Below, one piece after another: positions 51,919-56,133 of a stretch of 64,000 nt of DNA. The translations under genes were made by a program, and so were the position numbers. Below the pieces are notes generated by a model. The model had not been told where the DNA came from and searched no databases. It saw nothing but the letters and a program-made list of their open reading frames with translations. Source of the stretch: an uncultured Clostridia bacterium. Its GTDB lineage: Bacteria > Bacillota > Clostridia > UBA1381. Positions within the stretch are counted from its first letter, which is position 1. Each line of letters begins with the position of its first letter. Location of the stretch: positions 16,885-80,884 of the forward strand of contig CAKSGG010000004.1 in NCBI GenBank assembly GCA_934454215.1, given 5' to 3'.

Positions 51919-52371
51919 ATGACAGTAACAAAATTAACAGAGAAGCAGAGGCAGTTTGCGGAAGAACATCACGAGGTATTAGAGAACTTTTTGAAGTACA
52001 GAAGTCTGCCGCTTGATGAATACTACGATATTGTTGTATTCAGATTTTTAAGGGCTGTGCAGCAATATGATGAGAGTGAGGAACTAAAAAAGTATTCTTT
52101 TGAAACGATCGCTAAAAATCATATGCGTTCAGCACTCGGTAACTATTTCAGAAAGAAAAAAGGAGAAAAAAACAAATTTGTGTTTTTAAGTCTTGATTAT
52201 CCACTCACGGAATCGGGCTTGACTTTCGGTGATACGATTGCCGATGATAGCGTTGATATTTGTGAGGAAGTATGCAGAAAACTCAGCCGTACTCCCAAAA
52301 AGTATAGGCTTTCATATAGATATCCTATTTGCTTTGCCACAGGGCAAAATGCAATGCAGGAGGTGATATGA
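51919..52371 (+). CDS. Small sigma-70-family-like factor (candidate)
   Basis: 150 aa. 'DEYYDIVVFRFLRAVQQYD' and 'FETIAKNHMRSALGNYFRKK' resemble sigma region 2. This is a pattern-based call only. Confidence 0.45.
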   Translation: MTVTKLTEKQRQFAEEHHEVLENFLKYRSLPLDEYYDIVVFRFLRAVQQYDESEELKKYSFETIAKNHMRSALGNYFRKKKGEKNKFVFLSLDYPLTESGLTFGDTIADDSVDICEEVCRKLSRTPKKYRLSYRYPICFATGQNAMQEVI

Positions 52372-52427
52372 GTTCAAGGCTTAAATACGGAGAATACGAA
52401 TTTAAAAATTAAGAGGAGGAAAAAAGA

Positions 52428-53849
52428 ATGTTTGAAAACGAAAATGGATTTATAATTGGCGGTGATTTGGATTTGGGCAGTGAGGCGAGCGATTTCGGTG
52501 GCTTTACAACACTTGACGATAATGAGGCTGCGGCAGTGTTTGAAGATTTGAATGTTGAGCAAACACCGCCGGAGAAAAAAGCCGAGGAAACACCACCACC
52601 TGCACAGGCACAGATGATAACAGAAAACGCCAATGAGCAAAAAGCGGATGTTCCAAGAGCTTCTGTGGCGGAAATTAAAACGGAGGAAAACAAAGATGAA
52701 ACAGTTACAAAAAGTTCAGCAGGAGCAACTATGGGTAAGGTACAGGCTGAAAGTAATTCCGAAGAACCGCAGGATTTATGGTCGGCGGTTATGGCGGAGG
52801 CAGACGAAAAACAGGCAGAGACTAAGAAAAACAGCTTAATCGAAAAACTGCCGTTTTTTGAACATGGCGGTGCAAAGGAGGAAATTGTTGATACATCAAA
52901 AACCTTTGAGCAGCTCCGTTTGGAAAAAGCTGAGGACTTCCCTGAGCTTGATGAGGGCGAAAATGTGAAATGGAAAGTAACCTACGGCACTATTGTAAAG
53001 CAGGTTACAGATGCGAAAAAGACAACTATCGCAAGTATGAAAACACAGATTGAAGAATCTGACGAGTTCATAAATTTTCTCAAAAAGCCTGATGACAAGA
53101 AAGCGAAAGCCAAAAAAACAAAGGGTGGAAACGAGAAGAATGAAATCGAATGCAAAATCATTCCTATGATTACGGCAAAGAAAAAAGGTGTTATGGCAGA
53201 ATATAAAGGTTTATTCAATTCTGTTGAGGAAGCACAAAAAAGCGGAAAGCTGATATCATTTGTTCCGTCAAGGGATGGCAAGGTATTCGAAGTTCGTAAC
53301 AATAAGATAGGCACATTTATCGCACAGACTGAAAGAGTAACTGATTTTCAAAAGGTAAGAGCCGGGTTTATCCCGGCCTTGCCGAAAATTCCTTATAGCG
53401 TGTGGTCTGAAATAATTGCATTTTTCAAATCGTTTATTGATAAAGATGTTGAATTGGAAGCACTTGCGTATATTTACTGGTCTTATGAAACAGAAAAGTA
53501 CTGTATTGTAATTCCGAAGCAGAAAGTGTCAAAGGATAGTGTAGACGCAATTCTGCCCGATTTTGACGAGAGCAAATATCTTCTTGTTGCAGAAATACAT
53601 TCTCATAACACAATGGGAGCGTATTTTTCGTGTATTGATGACAGAGATGAAAAAGCAACGAGAATATACATTGTTGTCGGTCGAATGGATAAGATTTTCC
53701 CCGATATTAAAGCAAGAATATCCTGTGGCGGCAAATTTGTGGAAATAGACCCATCTGTAATTATGGAAGGGTATAACGCAGAATATCCGCCGGAATGGAA
53801 AAATTCTGTCGGCGAGAGAAAATCTTTCAAGAAGGAGGCGGAACTATGA
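52428..53849 (+). CDS. JAB/MPN (JAMM) metalloisopeptidase-domain protein with a long acidic N-terminal extension
   Basis: The C-terminal 'EIHSHNTMGAYFSCIDDRDE' gives HxH-x7-S-xx-D, with an upstream Glu in 'ELEALAY'. Confidence 0.8.
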   Translation: MFENENGFIIGGDLDLGSEASDFGGFTTLDDNEAAAVFEDLNVEQTPPEKKAEETPPPAQAQMITENANEQKADVPRASVAEIKTEENKDETVTKSSAGATMGKVQAESNSEEPQDLWSAVMAEADEKQAETKKNSLIEKLPFFEHGGAKEEIVDTSKTFEQLRLEKAEDFPELDEGENVKWKVTYGTIVKQVTDAKKTTIASMKTQIEESDEFINFLKKPDDKKAKAKKTKGGNEKNEIECKIIPMITAKKKGVMAEYKGLFNSVEEAQKSGKLISFVPSRDGKVFEVRNNKIGTFIAQTERVTDFQKVRAGFIPALPKIPYSVWSEIIAFFKSFIDKDVELEALAYIYWSYETEKYCIVIPKQKVSKDSVDAILPDFDESKYLLVAEIHSHNTMGAYFSCIDDRDEKATRIYIVVGRMDKIFPDIKARISCGGKFVEIDPSVIMEGYNAEYPPEWKNSVGERKSFKKEAEL

Positions 53850-54571
53850 AACTGGCACTTGACAGACCTGTCAGGATATTGATTATCGGAGCAGGTGGCA
53901 CAGGCGGATATGTAATTCCACATTTGTACCGAATTGCGTTTGCGTCAAATCGTAAGTGCAGAATTATTTTGGCTGACGGAGATATTGTTGAAAACAAAAA
54001 TCTTATAAGGCAAGGCTTTTCTCAGGTAGATATAGGCGAAAATAAAGCAGAGGTAATGGCGGCACGCTATTCTGATGTCTTTGGTATTGAAACGGAATAT
54101 ATTCCGGATTTTATTGAAGATGAAGATCAGCTTTATGAGCTTTTGTATCAGAAACATTATAGTTATATGGGTGATCCGAAGCCGATAAGTATTTTGATAG
54201 GTGCTGTGGATAATAATCGTTCCAGAGTTATGTGTCATGAGGTTTTCAAGAGAATGGATGACCTTATTTATATTGACTCGGGTAATGAAATGTACGGCGG
54301 ACAGGTAGTATGCGGAGTAAAATCAAGCGGAAGGGTAATATGCAAGCCGGTAGCGAGTGTGTATCCGGACATTCTTAATGATGTCGAGAAGTTCCCATCG
54401 GAATTGTCTTGTGCGGAAAGAAGCGTGTCGGCACCGCAAAGCATAGCGGCAAACTTATTTGCATCAACCGCTATTTCCACAATGCTGTACTATCTGCTTA
54501 TCGAAGGCAGGCTTGAAACAACAAGGATTGCTTTTTCGGCGAGAAAGCTGCTGATGAAAGCTATAAAATGA
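53846..54571 (+). CDS. ThiF/MoeB/E1-like adenylyltransferase
   Basis: ATGA overlap with the JAB gene. 'ILIIGAGGTGG', 'ILADGDIVENKNLIRQ', 'SCAERSVSAPQSIAANL'. Confidence 0.85.
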   Translation: MKLALDRPVRILIIGAGGTGGYVIPHLYRIAFASNRKCRIILADGDIVENKNLIRQGFSQVDIGENKAEVMAARYSDVFGIETEYIPDFIEDEDQLYELLYQKHYSYMGDPKPISILIGAVDNNRSRVMCHEVFKRMDDLIYIDSGNEMYGGQVVCGVKSSGRVICKPVASVYPDILNDVEKFPSELSCAERSVSAPQSIAANLFASTAISTMLYYLLIEGRLETTRIAFSARKLLMKAIK

Positions 54572-54583
54572 AAGGAAAACATA

Positions 54584-54769
54584 ATGGAAAACAATTTTAT
54601 ATTAACACAGACCAAGGAAGTGATAATGACACTTGAAAGGACGGTTACGATTAAGACAGAAAAGCTGGAAACCATTGATTCTTTCGGAAATAAAAAACTT
54701 ATCAGAAGCAACAAGACCGAAAATGTTGATTTTCATAATGAAAATATAGACATAGGGAGGGTTGCTTGA
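54584..54769 (+). CDS. Small beta-rich protein (possible ubiquitin-like partner)
   Basis: 61 aa. Its stop overlaps the next start (TGATG). The function is inferred only from its position next to the E1 and JAB genes. Confidence 0.4.
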   Translation: MENNFILTQTKEVIMTLERTVTIKTEKLETIDSFGNKKLIRSNKTENVDFHNENIDIGRVA

Positions 54770-56133
54770 TGAGCGAATCTTATTATGCACTTGAAAAATT
54801 TGCGGAAATGGACAGGAATTTAATCAGTATCACAGAGGCAATGCCGATAAAACGGAAAGCCATTGATATTTACAGACAGAGGAATAATATACAGCGAGCA
54901 AAAGACACTCTTGCAGATTTGGAACAAATAAAAATAAAGCTGCTTGATACGGTAAGGAACTTGCGTCTGTTATTCTTTGAATGTGAAATGCCGGAATGTG
55001 CTGAGTTTGCCGGGAAGCTGTTTGGTGCAGTTAATAGCTATAATTTAATGACGCCGGACTATACCAAGCTTATCGAGGCAATAGACATTTTGAGAAAACA
55101 AATTCCGCATAGCGAAAAGATTACCGCAAAAATCATAGGTCATCTGATGAATAATGTTAAAATGGGATATTTTCCTACTGAAAACACTCATGTCAAGATG
55201 ATTAAAAGTGCATTGAAATTCCCGGATTGCAGTGTAAACATTTTGGATCCGTGCTGCGGTGAGGGAATAGCCCTTAATGTTCTTGCATTGGGAACGAACA
55301 CTGTAACTTACGGAACGGAAATAGATGATGCCAGAGGCAAGGAGGCGGAAGGCAGACTTGACCGAGTGGGTTTCGGAAGTTTTTTTCATTCAAGAATAAG
55401 CGGAGAAGTATTTCACGGATTGTTTCTAAATCCCCCATACTTAAATGTTATCGGTGATGGCGGTACAAAGGCAAGAAGTGAAAAAAGGTTTCTTGTAGAG
55501 AGTATGCATCACCTTATGCAGGACGGTGTGCTTATGTATATTGTCCCGTATTACCGTCTTACCTATGACATTTGCAGAGTTTTGTGCGATAATTTCGGAA
55601 ATATATCGGTGTATAGATTTTTGAATGACGAATTTAAGAAATTCAATCAGGTTGTGGTTTTCGGAGTAAAAAAGAAAAAATGTGACGGTAGTGAGCTTGC
55701 GGAAAAACTATCACAATATGCTATGCTGCCTGATAAAATTCCTTCGATAGATACCATAATACCTGAAAGCTATGCACTTCCGGAGATATCCAAAACCGTT
55801 GAGGTGTTCAAGGGTGCCAAATTTAACTTAGGCGAATTGCAAAGACAGCTTGCAAAATCAAAGTCAATAAATTTGCTCTTTGAAAAAAGCCGGATTGATG
55901 CAATAGAAAAGCGACCGCTTTTACCCTTAAACATAGGACAGGTCGGACTAATAGGCGGCAGCGGACTGATTAACGGATATGTGGATTGTGAAAATCCGCA
56001 CATTATAAAAGGTCGTGTAATTAAAGAAGTAAAAAAATATGAAAATGAGGAGGAAAACACACTAACCGAAACAAGGGTAAACAGAATGTTATTTAATGTT
56101 CTGACACCTGACGGATTAAAACGGTTGGCGTAG
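54769..56133 (+). CDS. N6-adenine DNA methyltransferase-like protein
   Basis: SAM motif 'ILDPCCGEGIAL' and catalytic 'FLNPPY'. Confidence 0.75.
   Translation: MSESYYALEKFAEMDRNLISITEAMPIKRKAIDIYRQRNNIQRAKDTLADLEQIKIKLLDTVRNLRLLFFECEMPECAEFAGKLFGAVNSYNLMTPDYTKLIEAIDILRKQIPHSEKITAKIIGHLMNNVKMGYFPTENTHVKMIKSALKFPDCSVNILDPCCGEGIALNVLALGTNTVTYGTEIDDARGKEAEGRLDRVGFGSFFHSRISGEVFHGLFLNPPYLNVIGDGGTKARSEKRFLVESMHHLMQDGVLMYIVPYYRLTYDICRVLCDNFGNISVYRFLNDEFKKFNQVVVFGVKKKKCDGSELAEKLSQYAMLPDKIPSIDTIIPESYALPEISKTVEVFKGAKFNLGELQRQLAKSKSINLLFEKSRIDAIEKRPLLPLNIGQVGLIGGSGLINGYVDCENPHIIKGRVIKEVKKYENEEENTLTETRVNRMLFNVLTPDGLKRLA

Follow-up and report, generated by a model that had tools for sequence, protein, structure and literature searches.

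A candidate ubiquitin-like conjugation cassette of the PRTRC/6d class, with a predicted Ubl-JAB precursor, on a plasmid-type element of gut Clostridia

Genes of the cassette and its enzymes

The stretch of DNA analyzed here (the window; 64,000 nt from an uncultured Clostridia bacterium, contig CAKSGG010000004.1) carries between positions 51919 and 57729 a group of genes, all on the + strand, that is predicted to form a ubiquitin-like conjugation cassette. A gene for a small sigma-70 region-2-like protein of 150 aa (51919–52371) is followed by genes for a 473-aa protein that combines a putative ubiquitin-like protein (Ubl) with a JAB peptidase (52428–53849), a 241-aa E1-like adenylating enzyme (53846–54571), a 61-aa protein (o61, 54584–54769), an orphan DUF6094 methyltransferase (54766–56133), two conserved accessory proteins, the small o103 (56142–56453) and the acidic, Cys-rich o200 (56464–57066), and, directly after o200, a 220-aa E2-like conjugating enzyme (57067–57729). 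The genes 3' of the sigma-like gene are tightly packed and plausibly form an operon. A first-pass annotation, made from the sequence alone, had listed the open reading frames (ORFs), a JAMM motif, a ThiF/E1 signature, ATGA and TGATG overlaps between genes and a methyltransferase with DPCCGEG and NPPY motifs, and all of these are there as described. However, it had let the cassette end at 56133 and had seen no E2-like domain, whereas a Prok-E2_D protein is encoded three genes downstream and the cassette actually reaches to the end of that gene at 57729. Three Pfam models (Prok-JAB, ThiF, and Prok-E2_D) scored over their curated thresholds and the gene order recurs in about 24 independent loci, and therefore the locus is beyond what would be expected by chance.

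The Prok-JAB match (28.5 bits, gathering threshold (GA) 25) covers residues 340–419 of the 473-aa protein, and the JAMM residues E344, H391, H393, S401, and D404 occur in every one of 33 homologues. The best NCBIfam match of this protein was PRTRC_A, a model of the ParB-related, ThiF-related cassette (PRTRC; NCBIfam TIGR03734–03742, Pfam Prok_Ub, Prok-E2_D, and Prok-JAB), with 51.4 bits against a cutoff of 101.8. The alignment, of residues 266–439 to profile positions 19–190 of 192, covers both a JAB-N region (about residues 260–335) and the JAB domain. Foldseek searches with the C-terminal half returned Rpn11, AMSH, CSN5, and PfJAMM1.

The E1 gene starts with the ATG at 53846, within an ATGA that overlaps the stop codon of the JAB gene. 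Its product matches Pfam ThiF with 58.7 bits (GA 28.1) and its best NCBIfam match is PRTRC_ThiF (93 bits over residues 22–243, under the cutoff of 144.75), whereas the ThiF/MoeB equivalog models gave 18–38 bits against cut-offs of 152–376 (ThiF itself, 37.9 against 159). Among 22 sequences the residues G15-A-G-G-x-G-G21, D44/D46, K51-N52-L53, R74, and D122-N123 are invariant, and Cys189, within SCAE, is the single invariant Cys (22/22). Identity to annotated PRTRC ThiF proteins is 24–28% (tblastn), and the nearest solved structures by sequence are MccB (27 bits) and generic ThiF-type proteins, which match the Rossmann segment only.

The E2-like protein matches Prok-E2_D with 26.2 bits (GA 25), and PRTRC_B was its best NCBIfam match (22.5 bits, cutoff 131.45). 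It contains the motif YPFSNV-x6-C-x-G, and an alignment with E2 proteins of Clostridia, Thermoanaerobacterium, and Bacillus and of two phages (a Bacillus jumbo phage and Ralstonia phage Dina) showed no variation at P133, N136, the putative catalytic C143, G145, and P150. From this conservation, PxxN...Cys143 is the predicted analogue of the HPN...Cys active site of UBC enzymes. Sequence searches of the PDB with the E2 and with the Ubl found nothing.

The predicted Ubl and its free, fused, and repeated relatives

The 473-aa precursor begins with a short motif, which is followed by a variable, acidic linker of low complexity and by a conserved domain (about residues 125–255) that runs to K253-G254; a YKG motif, JAB-N, and JAB come after it. 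The N-terminal tail comprises residues 1–116 (52428–52775), a predicted helix and Prok_Ub/PRTRC_C-like beta-grasp Ubl residues 117–254 (52776–53189; core about 139–254), and the linker, JAB-N, and JAMM/JAB metallopeptidase residues 255–473 (53190–53849). The N-terminal extension is kept full-length in more than 300 proteins and its tail carries the acidic-aromatic motif LDLGS..DF.GF..IFG, of which D15, L16, G17, and F23 are invariant in 33 homologues. An AlphaFold2 (AF2) model of the whole precursor reached a predicted local distance difference test score (pLDDT) of 62, with values below 50 at residues 1–30 and 38–114. An extension of about 330 aa in front of JAB had initially been taken as disordered; the low model confidence for residues 1 to about 115 agrees with this, whereas residues 117–254 are predicted to form a helix and a beta-grasp-like domain and residues of about 260–335 belong to JAB-N.

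When the sub-domain was modelled by AF2, a pLDDT of 73.5 and a predicted template modelling score (pTM) of 0.66 were obtained for the order beta-beta-alpha-beta-beta-alpha-beta, followed by the tail TAKKKG. In the PDB, the top 50 Foldseek matches of this model were almost all ubiquitin-like folds (best E 0.1, probability 0.91), among them a ubiquitin variant, the ubiquitin-like domains (UBLs) of USP4/11/15, FERM-F1, RAWUL, a neddylated-cullin chain, Atg8, the parkin Ubl, and Ras-binding domains, and in the viral database BFVD giant-virus ubiquitin-like proteins ranked first. A profile of the domain matches gp211 of Bacillus phage vB_BceM_WH1, and a broader one, made from 107 of the 239 representatives that exhaustive HMMER searches collected, was aligned by hhalign to a Prok_Ub mini-alignment from beta1 to beta3 (probability 95%, E 3.6e-8). 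K253-G254 is invariant in 33 homologues and near-invariant in the 107 representatives; Y259-K260-G261, just past the junction, is invariant in the 33 as well. Relative to PRTRC_C, the domain (residues of about 139–254, with an invariant terminal KG) is fused rather than free-standing. A word-index search with canonical PRTRC_C gave no candidates, and no further Ubl-like ORF was found within the window. The earlier suggestion that a beta-grasp domain is fused to the JAB protein and released by it is thus backed by structure prediction, by profile-profile homology to Prok_Ub, and by the split-gene comparisons given below, and where no protein with a C-terminal Gly-Gly had been obvious, the N-terminal half of the JAB protein is now a candidate Ubl ending in an invariant Lys-Gly. 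Gly254 is probably the C-terminus of the tag.

Related cassettes encode the same domain in other arrangements. It is a free protein in cassettes of Thermoanaerobacterium (...NFQKKG-stop), Paenibacillus (...APKKG-stop), and Clostridioides (...NFKNKG-stop), none of which contains a JAB, and it is also free in Metabacillus (...GGAKG-stop), where a separate JAB gene overlaps it by ATGA and where the N-terminus of the Ubl, MFENQLSLFGEN..., resembles the MFENENGF... of the window. Fusions to JAB were found in Halobacillus (...KKG/..., the slash marking the junction), in two types from B. cereus (...AKG/... and ...KNG/...), and in the window clade (...AKKKG254/VMAEYKG). Residues 25–211 of the Metabacillus JAB align to residues 277–461 of the window protein (E 2e-30), and therefore the start of JAB maps to the KKG junction at about residue 253. 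When the four free Ubls were used as a profile against Prok_Ub, a probability of 88% (E 2.9e-6) was obtained and the alignment ran through the terminal KG; single-sequence hhalign comparisons to the Thermoanaerobacterium and B. cereus proteins gave the correct register without being significant, and the 4-sequence profile was needed.

In two Bacillus jumbo phages the domain occurs as head-to-tail repeats with ...KG/ at the junctions. Five near-identical 57-aa units, each ...AGTKG, make up gp211 of vB_BceM_WH1 (L003:2778–3677; Pfam Prok_Ub five times, 94.5 bits), and gp199 of vB_BauM_KLEB27-3 (L033:1742–2449) consists of four near-identical 57-aa Prok_Ub units ending in ...KG. Each poly-Ubl gene is followed closely downstream by E2, JAB, and E1 genes of the phage itself, the JAB being encoded separately. 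In its database record gp211 of WH1 carries the annotation 'virion structural protein'.

A JAB was present in all 7 lineages in which the Gly is blocked, and the Gly is exposed in all three cassettes that lack JAB. A strict rule that an exposed Gly means no JAB was rejected, as Metabacillus has both, and because Metabacillus keeps its JAB although the Ubl ends in Gly, a deconjugating role for JAB would follow too. Short database proteins considered as free Clostridial Ubls all continue past KG into ...YKG and were dismissed as truncated fusions.

The Firmicutes Ubls of this family all open with a short acidic-aromatic motif, followed by a charged disordered linker. These motifs read LDLGS..DF.GF / IFG, INLFDGD, NLFDFFD, DIFSTFGL, YDLFGEP, and LSLFGEN (sites: window 52428–52560, L001:8582–8956, L002:7526–8491, L031:6000–6992, L032:6523–6948, and L037:4873–5280), and besides the window they were seen in the Ubls of Thermoanaerobacterium, B. 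cereus, Paenibacillus, Halobacillus, and Metabacillus; (D/N)PF motifs are present also in more distant relatives. It is possible that the N-terminal motifs serve in partner docking, and they resemble clamp-binding peptides loosely.

Genetic element, leader, and accessory genes

A scan for related loci, made with one genome per species and a 3-sequence E2 alignment (a 7-sequence alignment was too divergent), yielded 24 loci, all from gut Clostridia and mostly on contigs of metagenome-assembled genomes of up to 267 kb; one is located in the chromosome of Bengtsoniella intestinalis. The order JAB, E1, a variable gene, methyltransferase, the o103–o200 positions, E2, single-strand annealing protein (SSAP), SbcC-like, primase, and DUF6744 recurs in about 24 independent loci at 31–85% protein identity, with the last four genes syntenic in about 20 of them, and was also found in a Subdoligranulum plasmid (S. 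variabile, OY725881) and in a faecal contig. In the window, these four genes (Rad52/Erf-type SSAP, SbcC/RecF-like ATPase, primase with CHC2 and DUF3854, and DUF6744) occupy 57707–62473 on the + strand and the SSAP gene comes directly after that for E2; in Halobacillus, the Rad52-type SSAP gene lies upstream of the cassette. A DnaN-like sliding clamp (44617–45792, + strand; DNA_pol3_beta, 47 bits) is encoded in a sister operon that has a common leader with the cassette. Immediately 5' of the cassette, DnaN-like genes are found in Halobacillus and on two B. cereus plasmids; in L005, L027, L029, and L030 they stand between the E1 and methyltransferase genes.

Also encoded in the window are RepA_N, a coupling protein of the VirD4/TraG type (200 bits), a resolvase, a tyrosine recombinase, and a block resembling a type VII secretion system (T7SS), as well as a helicase, the DnaN-like clamp, MoxR-vWA, and a single-stranded DNA-binding protein (SSB). 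From these genes it follows that the element is a large replicon of the conjugative plasmid type, in whose replication/recombination module the cassette lies. The coupling protein of a type IV secretion system, RepA_N, and the resolvase also bear out the first-pass annotation, which had placed a cassette for ubiquitin-like conjugation on a mobile element of Firmicutes. In PLSDB, at least 545 plasmids (Bacillus 158, Pseudomonas 139) carry the E1 family, low-identity matches being annotated as PRTRC ThiF, and it is also present in 13 phage records, jumbo phages included; near-identical DNA was not found in annotated plasmids or phages. A phage origin of the element was considered and is unlikely, as one IMG/VR locus stands against 24 genomic loci and the window has the coupling protein and RepA_N.

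The T7SS-like block on this conjugative element (8070–32274) comprises a 1510-aa FHA and FtsK/SpoIIIE (EssC-like) ATPase, two Ser/Thr kinases, a PP2C phosphatase, a subtilase, wall proteins with SLH and copper-amine-oxidase-N domains, and several ORFs of about 85–104 aa; a 1509-aa clostripain-family protein is encoded beyond it. In two related loci, genes of the module are interrupted, the methyltransferase gene by about 2.5 kb (L013:1459–3989) and the SbcC-like gene by about 1.6 kb (L026:12065–13670), which suggests insertions of mobile DNA or introns.

Many proteins of the module at 44617–63911 end in Ala-Ala (8 of 27 genes; 12 of 27 end in Ala), and none of the 33 upstream genes does (binomial P = 2e-12; Fisher P = 9e-4). 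The eight are the DnaN-like clamp (44617–45792), the product of 45798–46163, o66 (51336–51536), o200 (56464–57066), the SSAP (57707–58585), the SbcC-like protein (58601–60355), the primase (60357–61439), and the DUF6744 protein (61472–62473). In orthologues of 31–45% identity the Ala-Ala end is kept in 22/23 SSAPs, 20/22 SbcC-like proteins, and 13/16 DUF6744 proteins; it never ends JAB, E2, or o103 and is absent from Bacillus, Thermoanaerobacterium, and proteobacterial cassettes. The possibility that these ends are a by-product of ribosome-binding sites was rejected, as these sites stand after the stop codons. A C-terminal Ala-Ala is a classic ssrA/Ala-tail-type ClpXP degron, and the ends look like an encoded degron of this type that would give short-lived proteins.

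A leader of 335 nt precedes the sigma-like gene, after a strong intrinsic terminator (51553–51583, + strand) that ends the upstream operon (helicase to o66) and consists of a 13-bp stem, in which 7 pairs are GC, and of a subsequent T-run (RNA fold -23.4 kcal/mol). The structured part of the leader (51655–51883, + strand), with two hairpins each followed by a T-run, has a second copy at 41233–41461, and these 229-nt copies, which share 97% identity, precede the sigma/JAB and helicase operons, respectively, so that a leader common to both operons, as proposed in the first-pass annotation, is indeed present. It is conserved at 72–84% in relatives L007, L008, L010, L012, and L014, its DNA fold has a z of -2.8, and a promoter-like TTGCAG-17-TATGAT is located inside it. 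Rfam searches matched no family in the window, leader included. The two strong hairpins with T-runs could be attenuators.

Among the remaining genes of the cassette, the one for the sigma-like protein was present as first described. Its sigma identity is backed weakly (Sigma70_r2, E=0.038; TIGR02937, 22.9 bits, under the cutoff of 42.9; phrog_37022, 1e-18), and the gene is kept within the module of relatives at varying positions. The 61-aa product of o61 was considered as the Ubl and rejected: it has no profile match and no conserved Gly (the ends read (G/R)R(A/V)A), and it is restricted to the closest clade, being conserved at 45–61% in 9 close loci and absent from L011, while unrelated genes occupy its slot in L004 and L005. 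The proteins in that slot of this distant clade (L004:12728–13519 and L005:2788–3483) have 231–263 aa and a repetitive beta-rich N-terminus and are possibly bactofilin-like. The o61 gene overlaps the start of the methyltransferase gene by TGATG and is translationally coupled to it. The methyltransferase (DUF6094, PF19587, 342.8 bits; DPCCGEG and NPPY motifs) also matches the PADLOC models mad2 (2e-12) and MTase_II. Only in the Clostridial lineage is its gene inserted so as to separate E1 from the E2 block; in Thermoanaerobacterium it is elsewhere on the plasmid, and in Bacillus cassettes it was not seen within the flanks examined.

For o103, 12 orthologues and 8 database homologues were found, the counterpart in L004 was linked to it by hhalign with 85%, and positional counterparts stand 5' of E2 in all Firmicutes cassettes sampled. 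By position o103 might be PRTRC_C, which was rejected in view of its aromatic C-termini (KFF/RYY) without Gly and of an hhalign probability to PRTRC_C of 0.8%. The 12 orthologues of o200 mostly end in LEAA and are weakly linked to the counterpart in L005 (E 1e-3); an identity with PRTRC_F was likewise rejected, as o200 is alike in position only and homology was not detectable by NCBIfam or hhalign. Comparison of o103 and o200 with PRTRC_E and PRTRC_F of Dina by hhalign gave a probability of 0.1%, and NCBIfam gave no match. In Bacilli, phages, and other Clostridia, the proteins at the o103 position have the tips DEDFF, DEIFI, DEDVFI, SEEIFI, ESDFI, EDDFI, and EEEIY (L001:7026–7337, L002:4034–4363, L031:4413–4742, L040:3073–3486, L003:3755–4138, L033:2556–2975, and L036:3257–3544). 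These acidic-aromatic tips recall the C-terminal tail of SSB, which in the window ends in DSDDLPF, whereas o103 of the window clade has basic-aromatic ends instead (KRYY/KKFF/KHCY).

Relation to known systems, proposed mechanism, and alternatives

The closest family named in the first-pass annotation, PRTRC, remains so, as it gave the best NCBIfam match for JAB, E1, and E2, though all were under the cut-offs. It corresponds to class 6d of Iyer, Burroughs & Aravind (2006), which was described as a Ubl with C-terminal Gly, a JAB with JAB-N, an E1, an E2 that lacks the classical His, and an alpha-helical protein, and whose listing already includes B. cereus and B. thuringiensis (PMC1779556). With this class the window cassette probably has in common a Prok_Ub-type Ubl with terminal Lys-Gly, a JAB with JAB-N, a small single-domain E1, and an E2 lacking the classical His. 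Its E1 family grades into the plasmid proteins annotated as PRTRC ThiF, two accessory genes stand 5' of E2 as in the canonical order E-C-F-B-A-ThiF, and carriage is on plasmids, integrative and conjugative elements, and phages. It differs in that the predicted Ubl is fused to JAB and has a long disordered N-terminal tail and an insertion in the beta-grasp, in that JAB–E1 is split from the accessory genes and E2 by the orphan methyltransferase, in that the His downstream in E2 is replaced by Asn/Asp, and in its neighbours (DnaN, Rad52-type SSAP, SbcC-like ATPase, and primase). By its sequence features the cassette is probably a divergent Firmicutes variant within the PRTRC/6d class. No functional study of this class was found in the searchable literature.

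Conjugation has been shown for type II CBASS (cyclic oligonucleotide-based anti-phage signaling system; classes 6A/B), Bil (6C), and Bub (6E) (PMC11601603, PMC10557695). Bil (BilABCD) likewise has separate Ubl, E2, JAB, and E1 activities, and its JAB peptidase BilC pre-processes the Ubl and thereby exposes the C-terminal Gly (PMC10557695). However, BilD, the E1 of Bil, is large and eukaryote-like and has both inactive and active adenylation domains as well as a Cys domain that is mobile (Pfam Prok-E2_C region), whereas the E1 of the window has 241 aa and a single ThiF domain. Also, the E2 of Bil is of the CEHH type and not Prok-E2_D, its Ubl is not fused to the peptidase, and Bil is found with CapH/CapP in defence contexts; PADLOC gave no Bil-type match for the window cassette. 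Type II CBASS follows the same logic of E1, E2, and JAB on mobile DNA, with a JAB (Cap3) that antagonizes or edits conjugation. Unlike the window, where 2.5 kb lie between the separate E1 and E2 genes, its Cap2 is an E2-E1 fusion conjugating the CD-NTase C-terminus without any Ubl; neither CD-NTase nor effector was found in the window, and PADLOC Cap2-type models match only the Rossmann segment of the E1, with at most 27 bits. Bub differs in its fusion partners (Ubl-JAB in the window), in its E1 and E2 families, and in its DUF6527 protease, which the window does not have. Similarity to eukaryotic ubiquitin precursors lies in a C-terminal Gly blocked by fusion (window) or by repeats (4–5 units in the Bacillus jumbo phages), in the need for release by a peptidase, and in the JAMM enzymes Rpn11, AMSH, and CSN5 being the closest folds to the window peptidase; however, the fusion partner in the window is the predicted processing peptidase itself and similarity to ubiquitin is at the fold level only.

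We consider it probable, with moderate confidence, that the locus is a complete PRTRC/6d ubiquitin-like conjugation cassette whose modifier is the N-terminal half of the 473-aa protein, fused to JAB and released at Gly254. The two operons with the common leader would be transcribed together, and the JAB domain would cut its own precursor after Gly254, in cis or in trans, to give a Ubl of about 254 residues with a free C-terminal Gly, a step that is proposed because of the comparative genomics and the Bil precedent. The 241-aa E1 would then adenylate Gly254 and probably form a thioester on Cys189, and the Ubl would pass to Cys143 of E2 and from there to lysines of target proteins, with o103 and o200 as possible specificity factors. 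JAB may also remove the tag.

Several points weigh against this reading, in which each biochemical step is deduced from sequence. The PRTRC scores of JAB, E1, and E2 are all well under the curated cut-offs, PRTRC_D, E, or F were not detected by NCBIfam or hhalign, and a Pfam scan of 49 ORFs of the window, which left aside about 11 that are mostly small, found no ParB domain (TIGR03734), the element extending past the window. The window domain has no direct match to Pfam Prok_Ub (PF14454) or TIGR03738, although both recognized the phage Dina protein as positive control, no Foldseek match has an E below 0.1, and the pLDDT is only moderate. The confident hhalign region covers beta1 to beta3 and leaves the tail uncovered, a forced extension through the tail being uninformative, so that the equivalence of G254 with the terminal Gly of Prok_Ub would rest on arguments of topology, motif, and gene boundaries; the domain also has a second invariant Gly, G187. 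The association of a blocked Gly with JAB comes from a small sample of about 11 lineages. In E2 the His downstream of the Cys is Asn/Asp (N-N-D at this position in the window clade), whereas Iyer et al. described a His C-terminal to the Cys of family-D E2s as 'absolutely conserved' (PMC1779556). Finally, neither an E3 nor a target is identifiable for the cassette.

The beta-grasp might instead be a permanent internal UBL that docks or regulates the peptidase, as in USP4/11/15 and USP7, and is never released, in which case the modifier would be something else, for example a ThiS/MoaD-type protein of the host or a small protein not yet recognised. The internal UBLs of USP4, USP11, and USP15 among the Foldseek matches would fit this, as would the invariance of Y259-K260-G261 past the junction, since the linker may be structural, and cleavage of the 473-aa protein is itself a prediction; moreover, Iyer et al. 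considered the use of endogenous ThiS/MoaD by such systems (PMC1779556). However, in four lineages a gene of its own encodes this domain and stops exactly at the Gly, the head-to-tail repeats of the two phages make sense only for a released modifier, and the window has no other Ubl-like ORF, and we regard a permanent UBL as unlikely. Very unlikely is the case that no dedicated tag exists and that E1 and E2 act in the manner of Cap2 on the -AA C-termini of the element's own proteins, with JAB reversing the linkages. Cap2 does conjugate the C-terminus of a non-Ubl protein (PMC11601603), and the -AA enrichment (8/27, P = 2e-12) is strong, module-specific, and conserved, but cassettes from Bacillus, Thermoanaerobacterium, and proteobacteria have the same enzymes without -AA ends, a candidate Prok_Ub-type tag with conserved terminal Gly is present, and a ClpXP degron explains the -AA pattern more simply.

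As to function, the cassette might be anti-phage or anti-plasmid defence cargo that tags proteins of an invader like Bil or type II CBASS, and all experimentally studied bacterial E1/E2/JAB systems have so far been defensive (PMC10557695, PMC11601603). The E1 matches PADLOC Cap2-type E1-E2 models weakly (at most 27 bits) and the methyltransferase matches mad2 of MADS. However, these E1 matches are confined to the Rossmann segment and no PADLOC model matches JAB or E2; CD-NTase, effector, and CapH/CapP are missing from the window, and, with 241 aa and a single domain, the E1 is unlike BilD. In addition, even between deeply diverged relatives the cassette keeps the same place amid replication/recombination genes, and not in a variable defence island, and homologous cassettes are carried by jumbo phages themselves, all of which makes a defence function rather improbable. 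A sulfur-carrier/cofactor or peptide-modification pathway (ThiF/MoeB or MccB-like) that happens to be on a plasmid would account for the secondary E1 matches to ThiF/MoeB and for MccB as nearest structure by sequence (27 bits, Rossmann region); yet the ThiF/MoeB matches are far under their cut-offs with PRTRC_ThiF as the best, the window genes scanned include no ThiS, ThiG, MoaD, MoaE, or rhodanese, and a conserved E2 with catalytic Cys and a JAMM peptidase play no part in such pathways. This explanation is extremely improbable, in agreement with the first-pass annotation, which had argued against cofactor biosynthesis.

The first-pass annotation had proposed a part in establishment or anti-defence after transfer; the conserved neighbours point, more specifically, to replication and recombination of the element. 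The predicted conjugation cassette is persistently linked to genes for DnaN-like clamps, for annealing proteins of the Rad52 type, for an SbcC-like ATPase, and for a primase. This suggests a regulatory role, exerted on the replication/recombination machinery of the element itself or on host factors that act on it, while the element is being established or maintained, and we infer that a role in replication/recombination or establishment is to be favoured over one in defence. As a more specific and speculative proposal, to which we give a low probability, the acidic-aromatic motifs in the N-terminal tail of the released Ubl could dock on the DnaN-like clamp or the Rad52-type SSAP, which, or host replication/recombination proteins, would be tagged by E2 in analogy to the ubiquitylation/SUMOylation of PCNA and repair factors. 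Replication and recombination of the incoming plasmid DNA would be controlled in this way, with the Ala-Ala ends as a second, proteolytic layer of timing. If true, this would give the PRTRC/6d class a first function.

The class itself was predicted bioinformatically in 2006. The window and its relatives form a tractable natural series of free Ubl, Ubl split from JAB, fused Ubl-JAB, and phage polyubiquitin-like repeats, and this series predicts cleavage after Gly254, catalytic roles for E1 Cys189, E2 Cys143, and JAMM His391/393, and the DnaN-like clamp and the Rad52-type SSAP as candidate partners. Precursor-style tags in bacteria and phages, as fusions or head-to-tail repeats, bear on the origin of polyubiquitin-type gene organization. 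Elements of this family are common among Clostridia of the human and animal gut, and the location of the cassette in the replication/recombination module suggests that mobile elements use ubiquitin-like tagging for their own propagation.

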